DNA of 64,000 bases from Candidatus Dadabacteria bacterium (GTDB lineage Bacteria; Desulfobacterota_D; UBA1144; Nemesobacterales; UBA2774). Both the position numbers and the translations under genes were made by a program. Position 1 is the stretch's first letter, and each line of letters opens with the position of its first letter. Location: contig JADLGH010000007.1 in assembly GCA_020849425.1 (NCBI GenBank), positions 2,732 to 66,731 of the forward strand. The letters are read 5' to 3'. Under the pieces are notes generated by a model that did no database searches, was not told the origin of the DNA, and saw only the letters and a list, made by a program, of their open reading frames with translations. Shown here piece by piece: positions 9,674 to 36,975 of the stretch.

Positions 9674-9747
9674 TGGCTGGGGCACTAGGATTCGAACCTA
9701 GACTGATGGATCCAGAGTCCATAGTACTACCGTTATACTATGCCCCA
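9674..9747 (-). tRNA. tRNA-Gln (anticodon CTG)
   Basis: The reverse complement reads TGGGGCATAGTATAACGGTAGTACTATGGACTCTGGATCCATCAGTCTAGGTTCGAATCCTAGTGCCCCAGCCA. Acceptor stem TGGGGCA/TGCCCCA, anticodon loop CTCTGGA (CTG), T-arm GGTTCGAATCC and 3' CCA. It is closely similar to E. coli tRNA-Gln. Confidence 0.85.
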
Positions 9748-10054: not shown

Positions 10055-10411
10055 ATGGCAGAGCCCGAATTTCACAAGCTGGAGACGTTCGAGAACCGGT
10101 ACCCGGACAGGGAATACGAGATAGACATATCCTGCCCGGAATTCACCTGCGTCTGCCCGAAGACGGGCCAGCCGGACTTCGGAACGATCCGCATAAAGTA
10201 CGTCCCGGGCAGGCTCTGTATAGAGCTCAAATCACTCAAGCTGTACATATATTCATACCGCGGCGTCGGCACGTTCCACGAGCACGTAACGAACAAAATC
10301 CTCGACGACATAGTCTCGGCGTGCAGCCCCGTAAGTGCCGTCGTCACGGGGGACTTCAACGTGAGGGGCGGAATAAAAACCGTCGTCACGGCCTCTTACG
10401 AGAGGGATTGA
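10055..10411 (+). CDS. queF: NADPH-dependent 7-cyano-7-deazaguanine (preQ0) reductase, unimodular type
   Basis: Catalytic Cys in [16 protein letters not shown] and the QueF motif [12 protein letters not shown]. Length 118 aa. Confidence 0.9.
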
Positions 10412-10430
10412 GGCCTCCCGTTCCGGGCTT

Positions 10431-11327
10431 TTGGCAATCCCTGGCCGAAATTATTTCTCAATTCATCCTCATGGGGTTAATATCTTTATATACCGCCCGG
10501 AGGATGCCGCAGGCTTGCTTTTAAAAGCTCAGATAATAATCACAGCCGTAATAATCCTGGTAATAATCGGGATCGCCGTGGCCGCGCCCTACGTCGCGCC
10601 GTATAAATACGACGAGACGGACTTCCGGAACGCGCTCAGCAAGCCCGGCCCGAAACACCTCCTGGGCACGGACCAGGAAGGAAGGGACATGCTGAGCCGG
10701 ATCATCTACGGCGCGCGGGTCTCGATAGCCGTCGCGCTCGGGACGGCAGCCATAGCGCTAGTCATCGGCACATTTTACGGCGCCGTGTCGGGCTATATCG
10801 GCGGCAAGGTTGACGAGCTCATGATGAGGGTGGTGGACGTATTCTACTCGCTCCCCGACCTCCTTCTCATCGTCCTCATCACGCTGGTCATAGGAAGGGG
10901 CGTCCTCGGAATAGTGCTCGCCCTCGGGCTCACGGCGTGGATGAGGGTCGCGAGGATTGCGCGCGGAAGCGTCCTCCAGCTAAAGGAAGTCGAATACGTC
11001 CAGTCGGCCAGGAGCCTCGGGGCTTCTCCCGCGCGAATTCTGGGGGTCCACATTGTCCCGAACATACTGAGCCCGCTCATAATCACGCTCACCTTCTCCG
11101 TCCCCTACGCGATCCTGGCCGAATCGACCCTCAGCTTCCTCGGCCTCGGGATAGCCCCCCCCGAATCGAGCTGGGGCACGCTCGCGAGCACGGGGTGGCA
11201 GGGCATAAGGACGTTCCCCCATCTCATCGTCTTTCCGAGCCTCGCTATTTTCATTACGGCTTTTTCATTTAACCTATTCGGAGAAGGTATAAGGGATTAT
11301 CTCGACCCCCAGAGAGTAAGGAGGTAA
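10431..11327 (+). CDS. ABC transporter permease, DppC/OppC-like
   Basis: Six TM helices with the HLLGTDQEGRDMLSRIIYGARVSI signature and an EAA-like loop (ARSLGASPARILGVHIVPN). No cognate binding protein, second permease or ATPase is in the window. The start codon is uncertain. Confidence 0.7.
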   Translation: MAIPGRNYFSIHPHGVNIFIYRPEDAAGLLLKAQIIITAVIILVIIGIAVAAPYVAPYKYDETDFRNALSKPGPKHLLGTDQEGRDMLSRIIYGARVSIAVALGTAAIALVIGTFYGAVSGYIGGKVDELMMRVVDVFYSLPDLLLIVLITLVIGRGVLGIVLALGLTAWMRVARIARGSVLQLKEVEYVQSARSLGASPARILGVHIVPNILSPLIITLTFSVPYAILAESTLSFLGLGIAPPESSWGTLASTGWQGIRTFPHLIVFPSLAIFITAFSFNLFGEGIRDYLDPQRVRR

Positions 11328-11334
11328 ATTTCCA

Positions 11335-13419
11335 ATGTACATCCGCAACCCGAAGTCATGTATAAAATACGGCGCCTCTGTTCTGGCGCTGACCGCGCTT
11401 TCGTTTATCGTTCCGGGCCCTGATTCGTCGGCCCAGATCAACTGCCAGTCCGAGATATACCTGCCCGCAAAGCCCGACGCCAAAGACAGGTTCAAAAAGG
11501 GCTACTGCTTCATCCAGATGGGCCAGTTCCAGGAAGGCGTGACGAGGCTCGAGGGCGTCGAAAAGGAGCTCCCGACGGTGGCGGACTACGTCCTCTACTA
11601 CCAGGCTGCGGGATACGAGAACCTCGGCGATTACCCTAAAGCCGCGCTGCTTTTCAACCGCGTGCTGACGGAATACCCCGGAAGCGGCGTCAGGAAGAAG
11701 GCCTTCGAGCGGCTGGGGAACATATACATCCAATCCGGCGACTACGCCAACGCCGAGAGGATTTTCAGGGCGCTTTACGCCGAGGACGCACCCCGGAGCT
11801 CGAAATCATCATACCTTTACAGCCTCGGCGAGGCCCTCGAAAAGCAGGGCCGCTACCCCGAGGCCGTGTCCACGTACAAACAGGTCTGGGTCGAGTATCC
11901 CGAATCGAAAGAATCGTCTTCGGCGCAGGCGGCGGCCCGCCGCGTGAGCACGGCGGGCGGAGTGGCGTTCACCCCCACCCAGTCCGACTACCTACAAAGG
12001 GCCGACACCCTCTTTAAATATTCGAGGTGGTCTTCCGCGGTACAGAACTACGAGATGGTCGCCTCCAAAAGCACCCAGGCCATGACGAACATGGGAATCG
12101 CGATGGTTAACGCCGGCAGGCTTAACGAGGCCGAGGCGGTGCTGAGCACCATAAACACCCCCGAGTCTCTCTTCTGGAGGGGCAAGCTCAAATCGAAACA
12201 GGGGCTCGACAGCGAGGCCGCGTCGCTCTATTCACAGATAAGCACCCGCTTCCCGTCGAGCGAGCTCGCTCCCGAGGGGCTTTACAACGCCGCCAGGCTC
12301 TACCAGATCAACGACCAGGACCAGAGCGCCATAAAAACCTATGACGTCCTCATAAGGACCTACCCGAAGAACAAGTACGCCGAGGACGGCGCGTGGAACC
12401 TCGGCTGGATTTATTACAGGAAGGGGATGTACCCCGAGGCGCTCGCGACGTTTTCCGCCTTCACCGATTCGTCGTCCTCTTTTAACGCGTCCAACGCCAG
12501 GTACTGGAAGGCGAGGACCCTCGAAAAACAGGGGAGGAGGGACGAAGCGCTCGCCGAATACACGGCCCTCGCCGCCCTCACTCCGCCGACGTATCATTCC
12601 TACCTCGCGCAGCAGAAAACGGGCGTCACCCCGGCCTTTGCAAACGTAAGCCCCGAGACGACGACCCTCGGCCCGGAGGCCGCCGCGAGGAAGCAAAAGG
12701 CCGAGCTCCTGATAGAGCTCGGGCTGCCCGATGACGCGAGGCTCGAAATAGAAAAGATGGAGAGCGCCGCCAAGGCGCAGGAAGAGTTCGTCGCGGTGAG
12801 CCTCCTTTACGCGAAGGTCGATGATTACAATAGCTCTATAAAAGTCGCGCAGGACCTCGGCCTCCCGCAGGCCAACAGCCTGTCGTTCCCGAGGGGGTAC
12901 AAGGACATAGTCGGTCCCTACGCCAGGAAATACGGCGTCGATGAGCTCCTGGTTTATTCCGTCATAAGGGAGGAGAGCAGGTTCCAGAAGGACGTCGTCT
13001 CCCCGGCAGACGCCGTCGGGCTGATGCAGCTCATACCGCCCACGGCGAGGACCGTCGCAAGGCAGATCGGCCTCAGCGGCTTTACGGTCGAGATGCTTAC
13101 GATCCCGCGCATAAATATCGAAATGGGCATATTTTATCTGAAGCAGGTGCTGGACAAGTTCGGCGGTGACGTCGAGCTCGCCCTCGCGAGCTACAACGCC
13201 GGCCCGAACCGCGCCGCCACCTGGAAGACGCAGTACTACGGGCTCGACAAGGACGAGTTCATAGAAGAGATACCTTTCCGCGAAACGAGGAACTATATAA
13301 GAAGGATCCTGAGAAGCTACGGAGCGTACAAGGCGATCTACGGGGGCTCGGCCTCGGCTGCGGAGCCCCCGGCAAAGACGACGCCCGGGGCGAGCGATGC
13401 GAAATATCCGGTGAACTAG
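11335..13419 (+). CDS. slt: soluble lytic murein transglycosylase (Slt70-like: superhelical TPR-like domain + C-terminal SLT domain)
   Basis: Signal peptide, a long alpha-superhelical region, and a C-terminal lysozyme-like domain LLVYSVIREESRFQKDVVSPADAVGLMQLIPPTA...ALASYNAGPNRA. Confidence 0.85.
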   Translation: MYIRNPKSCIKYGASVLALTALSFIVPGPDSSAQINCQSEIYLPAKPDAKDRFKKGYCFIQMGQFQEGVTRLEGVEKELPTVADYVLYYQAAGYENLGDYPKAALLFNRVLTEYPGSGVRKKAFERLGNIYIQSGDYANAERIFRALYAEDAPRSSKSSYLYSLGEALEKQGRYPEAVSTYKQVWVEYPESKESSSAQAAARRVSTAGGVAFTPTQSDYLQRADTLFKYSRWSSAVQNYEMVASKSTQAMTNMGIAMVNAGRLNEAEAVLSTINTPESLFWRGKLKSKQGLDSEAASLYSQISTRFPSSELAPEGLYNAARLYQINDQDQSAIKTYDVLIRTYPKNKYAEDGAWNLGWIYYRKGMYPEALATFSAFTDSSSSFNASNARYWKARTLEKQGRRDEALAEYTALAALTPPTYHSYLAQQKTGVTPAFANVSPETTTLGPEAAARKQKAELLIELGLPDDARLEIEKMESAAKAQEEFVAVSLLYAKVDDYNSSIKVAQDLGLPQANSLSFPRGYKDIVGPYARKYGVDELLVYSVIREESRFQKDVVSPADAVGLMQLIPPTARTVARQIGLSGFTVEMLTIPRINIEMGIFYLKQVLDKFGGDVELALASYNAGPNRAATWKTQYYGLDKDEFIEEIPFRETRNYIRRILRSYGAYKAIYGGSASAAEPPAKTTPGASDAKYPVN

Positions 13420-32170: not shown

Positions 32171-32204
32171 AGGGGGCGCGGTCTTCGCAGCGCCCCCCTT
32201 TTTG
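32171..32204 (+). terminator. rho-independent terminator
   Basis: gggggcgcg / cgcgccccc hairpin followed by ctttttg, 17 nt after the methyltransferase stop. It marks the left edge of the low-GC island. Confidence 0.6.
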
Positions 32205-32220
32205 ATTGACGACAATCGCG

Positions 32221-33687
32221 TTAAGATTTAATACGTGTGGGAAGGTTCTTTAGATTGCCCAAAGCAAAACGGCTGTTGCTGCCCTCTCCACATTCTGAAC
32301 AAGATGGGCCTTTACGTGGTTCATCAAATGACATTTGACGGTATCTTGGAATGAAACGCATATAGCTCCGCTCCGCGTTCTGTTCTGTAAGACCTGTCAT
32401 ATATAACATAAAATCATTGGCTGCTTGTGAAGCAGATATTGCGTTGAGAGTTATTACGCTTGGTGCGTGTACTTCAATATCATTAACGTATCTTTGGGCA
32501 GCAAGCTCTTTTTTCCCTTGCCCTTCTTCCTGAAGCTTGGAGGGATCAATAACCTGATTGCACAAAAGACATCCTGCATCAGGAGTAACTGGTCTCACTA
32601 TACTGAAAATGTCTCCTACTTCACCTGTTTCCCCATCAACCGGCACCTTCGCACCAACCTGGACGCCCGGTATCAGGTATTGATGCACAATCGCATTAAA
32701 TAACAATCTTGCACGCATAGTGTCAGCAGCGAGAAATATATAGTCACAATCAAGAAGTCGATTAGCATTTTCTAAATCCAAAACATTGCCATAAACAGCC
32801 TCTATGAGAGCATTCTTGTTTGCTCTACTTATAATTCTCTTTGCGATAGATACCTTTTTCCTAGCCAGTCTTTTTGCCATATTCCGAATCCAAGACGGCA
32901 TACGTTGATCAGCTAACCAGGTAAGGGCATCAAATCTTGTTGCACCGACAACACGAGGAAGGTTAGAAATTTCTATACGGTCATCATCTATCAGTACGAA
33001 GCGACCAACGCCTAGGTGTCCCAAGTACTCAGCCAGGAGAGAGCCTGCACCACCAAGCCCGATAATTCCAATTTTTGTCTTACGCAATATTTGTTGTCCG
33101 ACATTCCCAAAAAGAAGTGCCTGACGGTCATAGGTCTCATCCCGCAAAAGGCTAGTTCCGACCGGAGCATCTCTTAGCAATCGCCTCCGATGTCCGATAA
33201 TGGTCGCGGACGAGAGTTTTATCCGACTATGATCAGAGAGCCAGATATCTCCTGCTACTGCATTTGTTGCAAACACTAAAGCCCCAACGGGCATTCCACT
33301 GGCTATATCCAACAACGCTGGATATACGCGTTCATGGCTCTGCATGTCTTCATGCGAAAAGGCAACTGAGTCAAAACCGCTATGATTATGTACTGCAAGA
33401 TATACAAGCCTTTTATCCCTGCATTCAAGTATATGATTCTGGATAAAATTAGCCTTGAGCATACGATAACCACGAACGCCCGGAACGTAATCTTGCCCGT
33501 CAATCGCGATATGTAGACTACGCGCCAGCAGTCTTACACGGCCGTCCGTAGTTGAGGCTACACCGGCCTTTATAATAGCACCGTGTTCATCACAATCACC
33601 CGGAAATAAATGAGCGTTCAGCTTCTCGTACATATCCCCCGACAATACCAATTCACAATGCCTTCCCTTTATCTGGAGTTTATCCAT
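32221..33687 (-). CDS. JAB/MPN metalloprotease domain fused to E1-like (ThiF/MoeB/UBA) adenylyltransferase
   Basis: N-terminal JAMM-like motifs are E-x2-G (DEHGAIIKAG) and HNHSGFDSVAFSHED (HxH...S-x2-D). The central Rossmann GIIGLGGAGS plus FVLIDDDRIEISNLPR match an E1 nucleotide-binding core. The C-terminal CxxC...CxxC (CLLC, CSEC) resembles the MoeB-type Zn site. Confidence 0.65.
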   Translation of the reverse strand: MDKLQIKGRHCELVLSGDMYEKLNAHLFPGDCDEHGAIIKAGVASTTDGRVRLLARSLHIAIDGQDYVPGVRGYRMLKANFIQNHILECRDKRLVYLAVHNHSGFDSVAFSHEDMQSHERVYPALLDIASGMPVGALVFATNAVAGDIWLSDHSRIKLSSATIIGHRRRLLRDAPVGTSLLRDETYDRQALLFGNVGQQILRKTKIGIIGLGGAGSLLAEYLGHLGVGRFVLIDDDRIEISNLPRVVGATRFDALTWLADQRMPSWIRNMAKRLARKKVSIAKRIISRANKNALIEAVYGNVLDLENANRLLDCDYIFLAADTMRARLLFNAIVHQYLIPGVQVGAKVPVDGETGEVGDIFSIVRPVTPDAGCLLCNQVIDPSKLQEEGQGKKELAAQRYVNDIEVHAPSVITLNAISASQAANDFMLYMTGLTEQNAERSYMRFIPRYRQMSFDEPRKGPSCSECGEGSNSRFALGNLKNLPTRIKS

Positions 33688-34094
33688 TCTATCACCTTGA
33701 GAAGTTTAATTTGAGGTGTTTCGAGATTCGACGAGTTATCTCTTCTATTTGATTTTCTTGAAATTTGAACGGCTGTGCGGCGTTCTCTTTGAGGAATATG
33801 TTTAGCATTTGCAGGTGGATATACATGCCCTTTTGAAAAGGCTTCTCCCAGTTCCTTTGAATCCTTACGAGAAAGATCGTCCCTTACAAAATGGGGATAA
33901 ACATCCGCATAGGGACAGGTATGCGTTATATGAAAACCAATCCATGTTTCACTCTGATTGTAAGTCGATGACAAAGTTATACTTTCGATAATAACAAACG
34001 CCCCGCCTTGCGCATCGGAGAAATAACGCAGGTTATTCTCTCCGTAATGTTCTTTTAACTCTTTAATTGCAGATTCGACGTCAGGGGTTAGCAT
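33669..34094 (-). CDS. hypothetical protein, possibly E2-like (small alpha/beta protein with conserved Cys)
   Basis: 141 aa with a candidate catalytic Cys in FHITHTCPYADVYPHF. It overlaps the downstream JAB-E1 gene by 19 nt, consistent with translational coupling. The E2 assignment comes from operon context and is uncertain. Confidence 0.35.
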   Translation of the reverse strand: MLTPDVESAIKELKEHYGENNLRYFSDAQGGAFVIIESITLSSTYNQSETWIGFHITHTCPYADVYPHFVRDDLSRKDSKELGEAFSKGHVYPPANAKHIPQRERRTAVQISRKSNRRDNSSNLETPQIKLLKVIEWINSR

Positions 34095-34106
34095 GACACA
34101 TCCTCT

Positions 34107-34793
34107 TTATGAATTATCATCATTTGCAATGGCAATAAATTTTTGACCGCGCTGAACCTTAACCATCTCACTATCGGCGACGATCTTAGTCCTCCCGGGA
34201 CCCAGCTCCACAGACAGAATAAAATCCAGTTGTATATTTACACCTTGGTCTATGGCAGCCTGTTTAATATCCAACCCTGTATGTTCATAACCGATCACAA
34301 TAATAGGCTTCTCATTTATAAAGATTTTCACTCTTGAGTCTTGCCTCTGTATTACAAAAAATCTTTCCAAAGAATTCGGGGAAAGATCTACCGTTTCTGC
34401 ATTATTTATAAGGCGGTCCTCATCCTGCCCACGCGCTTCAAGCCAAACCTCATATTCTTCCGGGTCAACTCTTGCAAGTTTCTTAAGCTGCAGGCCAGAT
34501 ATAAGATTGGCTCCCCATGGAAACGAACGCCCGTCTAAGACAAAACGAAAGATGCGATCTGTCTTAAACGTCAGAAATTCCATAATACCGGCCTTACAAA
34601 TATCGATGATTTCATCAAGCCCGATTACTTCTAATAGTCCGTTGTCCAAGAACGTAAGAACTACATGCTCTTCAACCGGACGCTTTCCAGCCTTATCTAG
34701 AAGTTGTCTTCCCAGTGGTTTGGGATCCTCGATTAAAAACCTTTCTCCATCAATTAACACCACATACTCTTTTTCGCCTAGACTTAGATTCAT
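34107..34793 (-). CDS. protein with three tandem beta-grasp (ubiquitin-like) repeats (multi-ubiquitin-like)
   Basis: Three internal repeats of ~70 aa, each with hxhxIDG/NEK ... G(L)D/Q ... pattern (KEYVVLIDGERF..., FRFVLDGRSF..., VKIFINEKPIIV...). First gene of a 3-gene minus-strand operon. No C-terminal GG. Confidence 0.5.
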   Translation of the reverse strand: MNLSLGEKEYVVLIDGERFLIEDPKPLGRQLLDKAGKRPVEEHVVLTFLDNGLLEVIGLDEIIDICKAGIMEFLTFKTDRIFRFVLDGRSFPWGANLISGLQLKKLARVDPEEYEVWLEARGQDEDRLINNAETVDLSPNSLERFFVIQRQDSRVKIFINEKPIIVIGYEHTGLDIKQAAIDQGVNIQLDFILSVELGPGRTKIVADSEMVKVQRGQKFIAIANDDNS

Positions 34794-34945
34794 TTTTACC
34801 TCCGAACCTTTAGATTTTTTTATTCGGCTATCAGCGAGCCCGTAACTACACCTTAAACTTCGCCAAATCAGATGTCAAGTGTTGCACGCCTAAAATAATG
34901 TATAGCATAACAATACATCATCTTTAAAATTTTGGGCGTTTTAGG

Positions 34946-34975
34946 TTGACAGAAGAATTTATCCTGTATTATTAT
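34946..34975 (+). promoter_or_regulatory. sigma-70-type promoter TTGACA-N17/18-TATTAT giving leaderless/short-leader transcript for the HTH gene
   Basis: TTGACA at 34946-34951 and TATTAT at 34970-34975, with the ATG of the HTH gene at 34982. Confidence 0.5.
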
Positions 34976-34981
34976 AGAGTT

Positions 34982-35341
34982 ATGAATGAAAGCTCAATTT
35001 ACGAGAAAATAGGCGCACTTATTAAGAAAAATCGCGTTAATCGTAATATGACTCAAAGCGATTTAGCAAAGAGAGTTGGGCTTTCAAGAGGTTCCATAGC
35101 AAATATAGAAAATGGTTCTCAGCGTATCCTCGTACATCAACTCTATATCTTCTCAAAGTATCTAGAAATTAAAACTGAAGATTTATTGCCAGAACATTTA
35201 GAAGAAAATATTGAGAACATAAAGAAAATTCAGATAGAAGTGCGAGGATCGCAAGATAATACTGTGCACAAGCAAACAAATGACAAATTGTTATCTTGGA
35301 TAAGCGAAATGATGGGAAAGGCCACACATGACCGAACCTAA
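34982..35341 (+). CDS. XRE-family HTH transcriptional regulator (Cro/CI-type; CapH-like)
   Basis: HTH_3 domain LIKKNRVNRNMTQSDLAKRVGLSRGSIANIENGSQ. It overlaps the downstream ImmA-like gene by 14 nt. Start ATG 34982; the ORF track start at 34946 is the -35 hexamer. Confidence 0.75.
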   Translation: MNESSIYEKIGALIKKNRVNRNMTQSDLAKRVGLSRGSIANIENGSQRILVHQLYIFSKYLEIKTEDLLPEHLEENIENIKKIQIEVRGSQDNTVHKQTNDKLLSWISEMMGKATHDRT

Positions 35342-35879
35342 ATCATACGCAGTCAGCATACTTCAAAAATTTAAAATTAATTTTGTCCCTGTTCCCGTTG
35401 AAGATATAGCAAAAGGGCTTGGTGCTAAAGTTGTATTCTCAGCTCTTGAAGATAGTCATTGTGGAATGATTCATATGCAAGGTAACATCATCGTGATAGG
35501 AGTCAATTCAATACATCCCAAAAATCGACAAAGGTTTACTATTGCACATGAAATTGGCCACCTCGTTATGCATAAGGACGAAATTAGTGAAAGTATTCAT
35601 ATAGATCAAGCCTTTGGTGAAAGATTAAACCGAGATGGAAGATCCTCTTTAGGAGAAGATTTAAAAGAAGTACAGGCTAACAGATTTGCGGCTGAGCTTT
35701 TGATGCCAACCAGTATCTTAAAAAGGGAAACTAAGAATCAGCGTATTGATATTGAAGATAGTGAATTTATTGAAAAGCTGGCTCAAAAATTTCAGGTAAG
35801 TTTTCAGTCCATGTCTATTAAATTACTCGATACTTTTTATAAAAACTATTCATTATCAACTTCTAAGTTGCATCCTTAA
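35328..35879 (+). CDS. ImmA/IrrE-family zinc metallopeptidase (HEXXH; CapP-like)
   Basis: HEIGH motif (FTIAHEIGHLVMH). The N-terminus is typical of DUF955/ImmA. Paired with the XRE HTH. Confidence 0.8.
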   Translation: MTEPKSYAVSILQKFKINFVPVPVEDIAKGLGAKVVFSALEDSHCGMIHMQGNIIVIGVNSIHPKNRQRFTIAHEIGHLVMHKDEISESIHIDQAFGERLNRDGRSSLGEDLKEVQANRFAAELLMPTSILKRETKNQRIDIEDSEFIEKLAQKFQVSFQSMSIKLLDTFYKNYSLSTSKLHP

Positions 35880-35967: not shown

Positions 35968-36975
35968 TCACCTCTCCGTTCTGATATGCCGGCGTACGGC
36001 ATAGTACTTTCTTATAAGCCGCTTGACGATACCCATCGTCAGCCCGGACGGGTTCACTACGGCCGACTTGTATATTCCGGTCTCCAGCTCACTCAGCTTG
36101 TAGCGCCTGAGTCCTCGTGAAGACGGCTCTCCGGCCGCCGATATTCCCTTCAGCGTCTCGGCGAATACCCCTTCGTCGGACGCCATATCGCCCTTGTCAG
36201 AGATCATGATGTTGTCCTTGCCTGTCTTTAAATATTTTCTCGCCCCGCCGATCGGAGCCAGCAGGTGCCATACGATCGCCTCGGTCGTGATCATCATCGT
36301 GTAACCCCGGGCGTAGAGCCTTGCGCAAAGGTCGCTCTCTTCCCTGAACGCCACATCCGAATATCCGGGGACCGCCCATCCCCCCGCGTCTTCTATGGCG
36401 CTTCGTCTGTAGAGTATCGCCCCGCCGCCCAGCGATTCGGCCTCTAGTATTTCTGGAAGGTTGTACTAGAAATGACCCTGGAGTCTCCAGTCGGGCCTGT
36501 CGAATCTGGGGATCCATTCGGGATCGCCGAGGGCGACGTCCAGGTCGAGCGGGCCGCTGCCGGGCTCGGGGTGGAGCCCCCCGACGGCTGCGAGCGGCTC
36601 GGACGGAAAGAACCTGAACGGCTTCAGCATGTTCTCGAGGAACGAGGGCTCCGGGAACATGTCGTCGTCTATCCGGAGTACGAGCTCTATGCCTTCGGGG
36701 ACGGCCTCCATTGCGCCCTGGTGCCTTTCCGCTCCCTTGTCCGTGCGTATCATCCGGACGTCGTGTCCCGTCCTTTGCGCGAGGGCGAGCAAGTCCCTCA
36801 CGGCGTGATCCCTGCCTACGGGCGCATCGCTCTGGTCGTTTATCACCAGCATCCAGTTCGTATACGTCTGGCCCAATATGCAGGATATAACGATAGAGAG
36901 GTACGAGGGCCTGTTCCTCGTCGGGACGGCTACGGCTATCTTTTCATCGCTGCGAAGCGGCTTCAGGTCTATCAC
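35968..36975 (-). pseudogene. family 2 glycosyltransferase interrupted by an in-frame TAG at 36466-36468
   Basis: N-terminal ORF 36466..36975 (VAVPTRNRPSYLSIVISCILGQTY...DDD) and C-terminal ORF 35968..36354 (FREESDLCARLYARGY) share one frame, joined by ...DWRLQGHF*YNLPEILEAESLGGGAILYRRSAIEDAGGW.... Confidence 0.7.

Follow-up and report, generated by a model that had tools for sequence, protein, structure and literature searches.

The locus analysed here raises the question of whether a small pair of regulatory genes controls the ubiquitin-like operon that lies back to back with it in a Candidatus Dadabacteria genome, and by what mechanism it might do so. The window, by which we mean the whole 64,000-nucleotide stretch of DNA that was analysed, contains a ~3.7-kb islet of low GC and foreign composition at 32.2-35.9 kb, made up of an HTH-peptidase gene pair on one strand and a three-gene ubiquitin-like (Ubl) operon on the other. 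A preliminary description had proposed that the pair controls the Ubl operon. Conserved synteny, the predicted architecture of promoters and dyad, and published precedent support this proposal, and we consider it probable that a module of the CapH/CapP class on this islet controls the divergent Bub-like operon by the mechanism proposed below. The genes of the islet, its left edge and the main parts of the two regulatory proteins are as follows.

32172-32203, strand not assigned: GC-rich hairpin terminator at the left islet edge, flanked by the JAB-E1 and host methyltransferase genes
32221-33687, minus strand: JAB/JAMM peptidase-E1 fusion gene, BubCD homologue, 488 aa (ThiF, 3.9e-29)
33669-34094, minus strand: E2-like gene, BubB-like, 141 aa (from the family alignment)
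34107-34793, minus strand: Ubl gene, Multi_ubiq, BubA-like, 228 aa (PF14452, 3.1e-40, 3 matched stretches)
34982-35341, plus strand: XRE-family HTH repressor gene, CapH-like, 119 aa (HTH_3, 4.9e-12)
35328-35879, plus strand: short M78 ImmA/IrrE-family Zn-metallopeptidase gene, 183 aa (Peptidase_M78, 6.4e-25)
HTH protein: HTH domain at residues 1-70, then a variable linker and a C-terminal helix at about 97-116
Peptidase: active site with Zn ligands H74, H78 and E114 and catalytic E75

The two genes of the pair are as first described, an XRE-HTH gene starting at 34982 and overlapping an ImmA/IrrE gene with a HEXXH motif. Both ORFs and both domain matches are found: the HTH gene runs from the ATG at 34982 to a stop at 35339-35341 and the peptidase gene from the ATG at 35328 to a stop at 35877-35879, with HEIGH at residues 74-78, and the two share 14 nt in the same orientation. 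Among the PADLOC models the HTH protein matches capH at 1.8e-9 and PDC-M69A at 1.1e-10, but generic XRE models score it about as well as capH does. An AF2 model of this protein, built with four homologues, is confident for residues 1-70 and of low confidence for 72-119, with pLDDT <50 in the C-terminal half. Beyond the HTH domain lie ~50 residues with two predicted helices, 71-77 and 97-116; the motif LSWISEM is conserved there. CapH has a two-helix C-terminal domain (CTD) with which this region is not confidently equated, no match to the CapH CTD having been obtained for a segment modelled at such low pLDDT. The C-terminal region may serve as an oligomerisation domain that includes a cleavage site.

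Judged by its residues, the Zn active site of the peptidase is intact; H74, E75, H78 and E114 are each invariant in 83-84 of 84 family members, and E114 aligns with E129 of CapP. The PADLOC capP profile matches the peptidase at 4.6e-34, over profile positions 4-152 of 242 only. By profile, CapP (7T5T) and IrrE are its best solved relatives in a set that was searched without an ImmA structure, and the alignment on 7T5T (291 aa) covers residues 86-183; Foldseek returned PprI (8SLN, the top match) and CapP 7T5T (TMq 0.63, TMt 0.44). Whereas CapP is a three-domain protein of 291 aa with a C-terminal GAF domain, the window peptidase consists of the peptidase and linker domains only, and no GAF domain was found in its 183 aa by the PADLOC capP profile, the sequence profile or Foldseek. 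The short peptidase is the native form and not a truncation, since all of its top 120 homologues are 168-191 aa long. The GAF domain is likewise absent from the regulator in most loci of this operon family. There is an insertion with a predicted beta-strand at residues 91-94, and the cysteine-switch loop of CapP was not seen in the alignment, in which His91 occupies the position of C113. His91 and Asp93 are invariant in the close clade of the window peptidase, but across the wider family only 58 of 84 members have His at position 91, and the idea that a 'histidine switch' characterises the family as a whole was dropped. The cysteine-switch loop itself occurs in only ~33% of CBASS CapPs and is not strictly defining.

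On the opposite strand, the Ubl protein is composed of three beta-grasp domains. The E2-like protein gave no match in Pfam, NCBIfam or PADLOC; in its family alignment Ser112 is invariant and no Cys is conserved, the Cys of a 'CPY' motif alternating with Tyr, and the only PDB match of its profile is a marginal one to Citrobacter BubB (E 0.83). The third protein is more readily placed. A profile of the window JAB-E1 protein and its relatives matches Citrobacter BubCD (9EA4) with an E of 1.4e-37 along almost the whole length (positions 5-424), whereas the E1s that follow score ~1e-14, and the JAB motif residues E34, H100, H102 and D114 are invariant. The operon thus resembles Type I/II Bub (6E/DUF6527) operons in its JAB-E1 protein, its multi-beta-grasp Ubl, its E2-like protein with an invariant Ser and no conserved Cys, and its association with this type of regulator. 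It differs from them in two respects. Type I operons have a BubAB fusion, whereas here Ubl and E2 are separate genes (Ubl stop 34107-34109, E2 ATG 34094), as they also are in the 80 genome loci with this JAB-E1 that were collected by a scan with a 4-sequence E1 alignment; the Ubl-E2 fusion was found neither at the locus nor in those 80. Moreover, no BubE (DUF6527/PF20137) gene was found in the islet, elsewhere in the window or in the 80 loci by phmmer with the single BubE query of locus L168, a search of limited sensitivity which does detect the gene in the Type II Bub loci L012, L027 and L168. The cargo belongs to a widespread group of three-gene operons that are related to Type I Bub operons but have no BubE; genomic loci of this JAB-E1 family number roughly 379. 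Lacking BubE, it falls outside the published catalogue, which is anchored on DUF6527, and surveys so anchored would miss operons of this type.

The combination of such a regulator with such a cargo has precedent. CapH is a repressor which is cleaved by CapP, and both are also found beside 6e multi-ubiquitin/E1 operons (Lau 2022 bioRxiv, 10.1101/2022.04.27.489752). In a survey of Bub operons, CapH and CapP were present in 168 of 544, or 31% (Ye et al. 2024/2026, PMC11601596). As in the CapH+CapP systems of E. coli MS115-1 and Thauera sp. K11, in the window an XRE-HTH gene precedes a PF06114 HExxH gene, the pair and a defence or stress operon are arranged divergently around a common promoter region, and a conserved site is present upstream of the -35; with the CapH+CapP pairs beside 6E/Bub operons it also shares a Bub-type cargo. 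The pairing of CapH/CapP with Bub operons is already published, and the present locus is a well-supported but ordinary further example, which extends the association to a Candidatus Dadabacteria MAG.

Two other known systems share parts of this design. ImmR/ImmA of the Bacillus subtilis element ICEBs1 combines an XRE repressor with a short, GAF-less M78 peptidase (169 aa, PMC12828697, compared with 183 aa here) on horizontally acquired DNA, and ImmA cleaves ImmR, derepressing adjacent genes. The genes under its control, however, are those for integration, excision and transfer of its own element, while the cargo in the window is a Ubl operon, on an islet with no mobility genes. DdrO/IrrE (PprI) of Deinococcus is similar in protease fold, as the top Foldseek match indicates, and in its logic, in which cleavage in the C-terminal part of an XRE repressor abolishes its dimerisation. 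In contrast to the window peptidase, IrrE has a GAF-like ssDNA-binding domain, and irrE/ddrO governs a chromosomal regulon of many promoters through the RDRM motif, whereas the islet carries a portable two-gene cassette that faces one operon.

The association of the pair with Ubl operons is conserved among relatives. The closest relatives of the peptidase (72%, 70% and 58% identical) are all encoded divergently from Multi_ubiq/ThiF operons, as is a 47%-identical plasmid copy, and the closest relatives of the pair as a whole face Multi_ubiq/ThiF/BubE operons. The divergent layout is preserved at loci L001, L002, L168, L003 and L172, and the Ubl gene directly faces the pair in all close orthologues. 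Among more distant relatives 11 of 33 also face Multi_ubiq/ThiF/BubE operons, and others face CBASS genes, for example SMODS and SAVED. Viewed from the cargo, a divergent M78 peptidase, in most cases of 185-216 aa, accompanies this JAB-E1 family at 28 of 66 genomic loci, and in nearly all of 80 metagenomic relatives the HTH gene is directly upstream of the peptidase gene. Pair, spacer and the first two domains of the Ubl protein have been inherited as a single block.

The spacer between the HTH gene and the Multi_ubiq gene, which starts at 34793 on the minus strand, is 188 bp long (34794-34981) with 35% GC. Its features are listed here in order of position.

34799-34803, minus strand: strong Shine-Dalgarno sequence GGAGG of the Multi_ubiq gene, 5 nt upstream of the ATG
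34850-34878, minus strand: candidate Ubl operon promoter, TTGACA (34878 to 34873), N17, TAAGGT (34855 to 34850)
34899-34917, strand not assigned: candidate operator dyad TGTAT-N9-ATACA, 19 bp, identified by conservation
34946-34975, plus strand: predicted HTH-peptidase promoter, TTGACA (34946-34951), N18, TATTAT (34970-34975)
34965-34969, plus strand: lone TGTAT half-site, just upstream of and into the HTH -10, conserved

A scan of 4.4 kb ranked the HTH-peptidase promoter first, with 11 of 12 consensus positions matched. When the spacer is shuffled with its dinucleotides preserved, 0.8% of the shuffles reach 11/12 or better. The hexamers had been described with a spacing of N17/18. The spacing of 18 holds, and that of 17 does not, as the second hexamer would then read TTATTA. 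The ATG follows the -10 after 6 nt, and inspection of the sequence showed no Shine-Dalgarno sequence before this ATG. The same leaderless geometry occurs in 34 of 63 family members (54%) compared with 2.8% of random positions, SD-like motifs occur in only 8 of the 63, and the promoter geometry is conserved in L002, L168 and L171. These results bear out the earlier reading of the HTH-peptidase mRNA as leaderless, which we predict from the position of the promoter. Two leadered promoters were considered and not adopted: ATGTCA-N16-AATAAT at 34872-34899, with a 9/12 match, and TTGCAA-N16-TATATT, which is present in L001 and L002 and not conserved in the window.

The candidate promoter of the Ubl operon was missed by the promoter scan because its -10, TAAGGT, is weak (3/6). 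L001, L002, L168 and L171 all conserve its -35 block, ATG(T)CAAGT, and have TATATT at the -10 position, and the GGAGG block before the Multi_ubiq ATG is invariant in the orthologous spacers. A manual reading found no convincing minus-strand promoter overlapping the dyad. Neither an Rfam search nor RNA folding revealed anything in the Ubl 5'UTR (fold z-score 0.54).

Midway between the two divergent -35 hexamers lies the inverted repeat ATGTAT (34898-34903), N9, ATACAT (34913-34918), which had been put forward as a candidate operator. The repeat is present, but alone it is no better than chance and was ruled out as evidence by itself: 48% of spacer shuffles hold one or more perfect 6-bp inverted repeats whose arms are 3-15 nt apart. 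The significance of the dyad comes from its conservation only. The TGTAT-N9-ATACA arms and their spacing are invariant in four independent orthologous spacers, in which the nucleotides between the arms vary; no other 5+5 dyad of the spacer is invariant, and none of 5000 column shuffles produced a matching one. TGTAT-N9-ATACA is unique in the window and, among 167 loci, occurs only in the orthologous spacers. The next relatives have TGTCA-N7-TGACA at the same place, and palindromes upstream of the -35 are common across the peptidase/HTH family. A second palindrome, TGCAA-GTA-TTGCA, which lies at the Ubl -35 in L001 and L002, is not kept as a palindrome in the window. Conservation of the lone TGTAT half-site is inseparable from conservation of the HTH promoter itself; this half-site may perhaps contribute something to autoregulation. 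On these grounds the dyad is a candidate operator for the repressor.

The position of the dyad is one reason to consider that the HTH protein might be an activator or dual regulator, which recruits RNA polymerase to a promoter with a poor -10 and whose cleavage by the peptidase switches the Ubl operon off or re-tunes it. The centre of the dyad falls near -74 relative to the HTH start and near -65 relative to the predicted transcription start of the Ubl operon, upstream of both -35 hexamers and outside both core promoters, which is unusual for a simple steric repressor; the perfect -35 and weak -10 of the Ubl promoter would also fit the pattern typical of activator-dependent promoters. However, these promoter assignments are predictions, and in the close relatives L028 and L037 the corresponding dyad overlaps the HTH-promoter -35, a placement like that of a repressor. 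In the characterised E. coli system the CapH site is likewise reported upstream of the predicted -35, in a similar position, and deletion of capH leads to high expression (Lau 2022, 10.1101/2022.04.27.489752). We regard activation as improbable and infer that the protein represses the Ubl operon.

A different objection is that the pair need not act on the operon at all. It could be an Xre-COG2856 toxin-antitoxin-like addiction module that stabilises the islet and regulates only itself, the Ubl operon being expressed independently; HTH-COG2856 pairs have been suggested on bioinformatic grounds to be TA systems, PDB entry 7T5T was deposited as 'CapP toxin', the named NCBIfam model nearest to the peptidase is 'spr1629 family repressor/antitoxin', and the pair is found with many different cargos. 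Yet no toxicity is reported for CapP, ImmA or IrrE in the literature examined on them, and an independent Ubl operon accords poorly both with the inheritance of pair, spacer and Ubl domains as a block and with a conserved dyad in the common promoter region, so that we consider this reading very improbable. More improbable still is an immunity module of the ImmR/ImmA type that controls excision or transfer of a mobile element, with the Ubl neighbourhood incidental. The short, GAF-less peptidase, the foreign composition of the islet and the occurrence of some relatives in mobile elements carrying an integrase or relaxase would all suit it, but no integrase, excisionase or relaxase ORF lies within or at the edges of the islet at 32.2-35.9 kb, no direct repeats flank it, and in all close orthologues it is a Ubl gene that stands directly opposite the pair. 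The single tRNA of the window (9674-9747) is far from the islet.

We thus return to control of the Ubl operon by a cleavable repressor, for which the following scheme is proposed. A near-consensus sigma-70 promoter would transcribe the HTH-peptidase operon from a start at, or a base or two from, the ATG to give a leaderless mRNA, and through the 14-nt overlap the peptidase would be translationally coupled to the HTH gene. The repressor, as a dimer or higher oligomer, would bind TGTAT-N9-ATACA and keep the Ubl promoter off. Upon a stress signal the protease, which probably cuts the repressor, would do so between the HTH domain and the C-terminal helix; oligomerisation and DNA binding would then be lost and the Ubl operon derepressed. 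With its promoter, leaderless start and 19-bp dyad, the locus offers a compact, phylogenetically footprinted case in which switches of this kind could be tested.

The nature of the trigger is the least firm part of this scheme, and DNA damage can be put forward only tentatively, at somewhat less than an even chance. In IrrE it is the GAF domain that binds ssDNA, and a similar role is presumed for it in CapP. Analogy with CapP would suggest ssDNA or DNA damage as the trigger, but for the window peptidase direct sensing of ssDNA as in CapP or IrrE is doubtful because the protease is a GAF-less short form. In IrrE, GAF is required for ssDNA binding and stimulation, and the GAF-less ImmA and Rir are not stimulated by ssDNA (PMC12828697). 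It is conceivable, if rather unlikely, that short GAF-less proteases use another trigger, such as a phage or cargo signal, Zn availability or RecA filaments, and that the strand bearing His91 and Asp93, at the position of the CapP cysteine switch, could autoinhibit the enzyme as a 'histidine switch'. Short GAF-less CapP-like proteases are numerous, with 4677 matches at E<=1e-10, and occur beside Bub, CBASS and other cargo.

The pair of regulatory genes lies in a low-GC islet at ~32.2-35.9 kb, in which GC content ranges between 0.32 and 0.48 against 0.54-0.67 in the flanks, by composition of the window. Five genes are found inside the islet, three on the minus strand and two on the plus strand; the candidate promoter of the Ubl operon is listed with them:

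32221-33687, minus strand: ThiF-domain protein (JAB-E1), 488 aa
33669-34094, minus strand: 141-aa protein (E2-like) without family match
34107-34793, minus strand: Multi_ubiq protein (Ubl) with three domains (PF14452, 3.1e-40)
34878 to 34873, minus strand: TTGACA of the candidate Ubl promoter, followed by N17 and TAAGGT
34982-35341, plus strand: HTH_3-domain protein, 119 aa
35328-35879, plus strand: Peptidase_M78 protein with HEIGH motif, 183 aa

The HTH and peptidase genes overlap by 14 nt, and the divergent operons are 188 bp apart (34794-34981). All positions in the preliminary description were correct on re-reading of the sequence. Each of the two regulator proteins has a 100% identical NCBI match named Candidatus Dadabacteria, which identifies the source of the window, as judged from these matches, as a MAG of that organism. 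Directly to the right of the islet are two glycosyltransferase-like ORFs on the minus strand (35968-36354 and 36466-36975, with ~110 nt between them) that resemble the C-terminal and N-terminal parts, respectively, of one gene; the apparent split may reflect a frameshifted pseudogene or an error of assembly.

The near-consensus promoter proposed for the HTH gene, TTGACA(34946)-N18-TATTAT(34975), matches the consensus at 11/12 positions. It is the top site of the 4.4 kb scanned, and a match as good turns up in only 0.8% of spacer shuffles that preserve dinucleotides. The -10 hexamer is separated from the ATG by 6 nt, and the HTH gene lacks a Shine-Dalgarno sequence; the Ubl gene, by contrast, carries GGAGG 5 nt upstream of its start codon. 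The N-terminus was set by family alignment, and helix 1 would be lost if the next in-frame Met were used; the longer TTG-initiated ORF opens right at the -35 hexamer. The geometry TTGACA-N18-TAT(C/T)AT-N6-ATG is kept in L002, L168 and L171, three of the loci with orthologous spacers. Across the family, 34 of 63 members combine TTGACA at 5/6 or better with a -10 that stops 4-10 nt (mode 6) short of the start codon, compared with a rate of 2.8% at random positions, and an SD-like motif is present in only 8/63. On these counts leaderless expression seems to be general among these repressors, and the leaderless mRNA predicted for the window fits that pattern.

The inverted repeat ATGTAT-N9-ATACAT, offered previously as an operator candidate, is present but not significant on its own, since 48% of shuffles of the AT-rich spacer hold a perfect 6-bp inverted repeat; it is conservation that argues for it. 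Four independent orthologous spacers were recovered, including those of L001, L002 (nearly identical to L168) and L171, with regulators 65-73% identical to those of the window. The 5-bp arms TGTAT/ATACA and their 9-bp spacing are invariant in all of these, while the inner sequence varies (AGCATAACA, TATATTATT, TATATTACT, ACTGTCACT). The dyad TGTAT-N9-ATACA is fully invariant, the spacer has no other such 5+5 dyad, and none of 5000 column shuffles yields one. It occurs once in the 64-kb window and is confined to the orthologous spacers among 167 loci searched. A related dyad, TGTCA-N7-TGACA, is found upstream of the HTH genes of the next-closest relatives (L003, L165/L166, L025, L028 and L037), its placement in the spacer having been read directly for L003, L028 and L037; the L003 site, ATGTCAGCATTACTGACAT, is at -76 from the start codon, versus -74 for the window dyad. 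Many other family members (L004-L083) have long palindromes directly upstream of the HTH-promoter -35, 40-60 nt upstream of the start codon (for example CAAACATGTTTG, ACACGCA-N-TGCGTGT and CACACAC-N3-GTGTGTG); the dyad of the window's clade is about two helical turns further upstream.

The XRE domain of the HTH protein (residues 1-70) is confidently modelled and ends in a conserved DLLP motif, followed by a variable linker and a conserved C-terminal helix (LSWISEM). The C-terminal half has low model confidence; it is a plausible location for an oligomerisation domain and cleavage site. The peptidase matches PADLOC capP (4.6e-34) over profile positions 4-152 of 242 only, and its best solved relatives, using a profile built from 23 homologues, are CapP (7T5T) and then IrrE. 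The AF2 model (pLDDT 81) likewise finds PprI/IrrE and CapP as fold matches, with TM-scores of 0.59-0.63 for the query but just 0.44-0.46 for the targets; the protein thus corresponds to peptidase and linker domains without a GAF domain. Truncation is ruled out, as every one of the best 120 of 4677 homologue matches (E<=1e-10) is 168-191 aa long. Residues H74, E75, H78 and E114 (the equivalent of CapP E129) are essentially invariant in the family. His91 aligns with the CapP cysteine switch C113, on a predicted beta-strand beside the active site. Within the close clade neither His91 nor Asp93 (residues 91-93, window 35598-35606) varies; in the wider family only 58/84 members have His at position 91.

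CapH/CapP pairs an HTH repressor with an M78 peptidase, the two encoded divergently from CBASS; a conserved CapH site lies upstream of the predicted -35, DNA binding requires the C-terminal oligomerisation domain of CapH, and ssDNA-stimulated CapP cuts CapH within that domain (Lau et al. 2022, bioRxiv 10.1101/2022.04.27.489752). A similar switch over the Ubl operon is quite probable here. A strong, constitutive, leaderless promoter would supply the repressor and, via translational coupling, the protease; the repressor on TGTAT-N9-ATACA, between the divergent -35 hexamers, would hold the Ubl promoter off; and a stress signal would activate the protease, which would cut the repressor between its HTH domain and C-terminal helix and so derepress the Bub-like operon. 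That the HTH protein is instead an activator or dual regulator is very improbable, and we give no more credence to the pair being a TA-like addiction module or an ImmR/ImmA element-immunity module.

The arrangement of the locus is confirmed and its interpretation as a repressor-protease switch supported, the trigger excepted. The switch logic has good support at this locus, and the GAF-less peptidase is the point of difference from CapH/CapP. IrrE without its GAF domain loses both ssDNA binding and stimulation, and the naturally GAF-less ImmA and Rir show no ssDNA stimulation (PMC12828697). Direct ssDNA sensing by this peptidase is doubtful, and DNA damage as the signal is a tentative proposal by analogy.

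As a rule, family members have an HTH gene followed by a peptidase gene, and the closest relatives of the pair face ubiquitin-like operons. The facing cargo at individual loci is:

L001 and L002: Multi_ubiq
L003: DUF2188, Prok-E2_E and ThiF
L168 (Holosporales MAG), canonical Type II Bub operon: Multi_ubiq, DUF6791-ThiF fusion and BubE
Mesorhizobium conjugative plasmid: three hypothetical genes and ThiF

Of the more distant relatives, 33 have 2.5 kb or more of upstream sequence; 11 of these also face Bub-like genes, and some of the remainder face CBASS (SMODS, SAVED), Metal_CEHH or MBL/beta-CASP genes. Such varied cargo argues that the pair is a portable controller of neighbouring pathways. Its association with Bub-type operons is already known, since CapH/CapP-like pairs adjoin 6e operons encoding a multi-ubiquitin protein and E1 (Lau et al. 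2022), CapH and CapP occur at 168 of 544 Bub operons (Ye et al., PMC11601596), and later papers restate the association.

Comparison of L168 (6124-7877) with the window (34107-35879) finds orthology across the regulator genes, the intergenic spacer and Ubl beta-grasp domains 1 and 2. The third, C-terminal domain and the downstream enzymes differ: the window is of JAB-E1 type with a Ubl ending ...DDNS, and L168 is Type II Bub (DUF6791-ThiF and BubE) with a Ubl ending ...TDKS. Because orthology stops after the second domain, a putative recombination breakpoint within the Ubl gene is implied. The same Holosporales defence island has a second HTH gene with a long (290 aa) M78 peptidase (10410-11963), divergent from a DUF2188/pP_pnuc_1/PDDEXK operon, so short- and long-form CapP-like switches coexist on one element, which also encodes a relaxase and an MmeI-type methyltransferase.

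In the facing operon of the window, JAB-E1 is homologous to BubCD (E 1.4e-37 to 9EA4). In the 141-aa protein Ser112 is invariant and no Cys is conserved, and its only PDB profile match is a marginal one to BubB. Ubl and E2 are separate genes, and a BubE gene was not found in this cargo. The three-gene family occurs widely: GTDB species representatives have 379 tblastn-confirmed loci, spread over many phyla. A divergent M78 peptidase, mostly of 185-216 aa, is present at 28 of the 66 JAB-E1 loci with enough flank; another 28 have just an HTH gene, and 10 lack both.

The cargo of the window (32221-34793, minus strand) and of 80 genome loci with the JAB-E1 family (L084-L163) is a relative of Type I Bub operons, with separate Ubl, separate Ser-type E2 and JAB-E1; lacking BubE/DUF6527, this family would escape a DUF6527-anchored catalogue. 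The Ubl stop and the E2 ATG (window 34094-34109) are 12 nt apart in the same frame, an arrangement that recalls the BubAB fusion but is probably coincidental, since L084 does not keep the shared frame. The Ubl C-terminus in the cargo family is a conserved ...A(D/N)DDNS and not a C-terminal Gly (window 34107-34130; L028 5172-5498; L084 4759-5583). A conserved protein of ~526 aa without Pfam match, absent from the window, is encoded convergently just downstream of JAB-E1 in 30 of the 80 loci (L144, 7413-9020, minus strand, and 29 others). At 24 of these 30 there is a divergent 129-aa HTH gene and no M78 peptidase, a gene arrangement that points to a different regulator or partner of this operon type.
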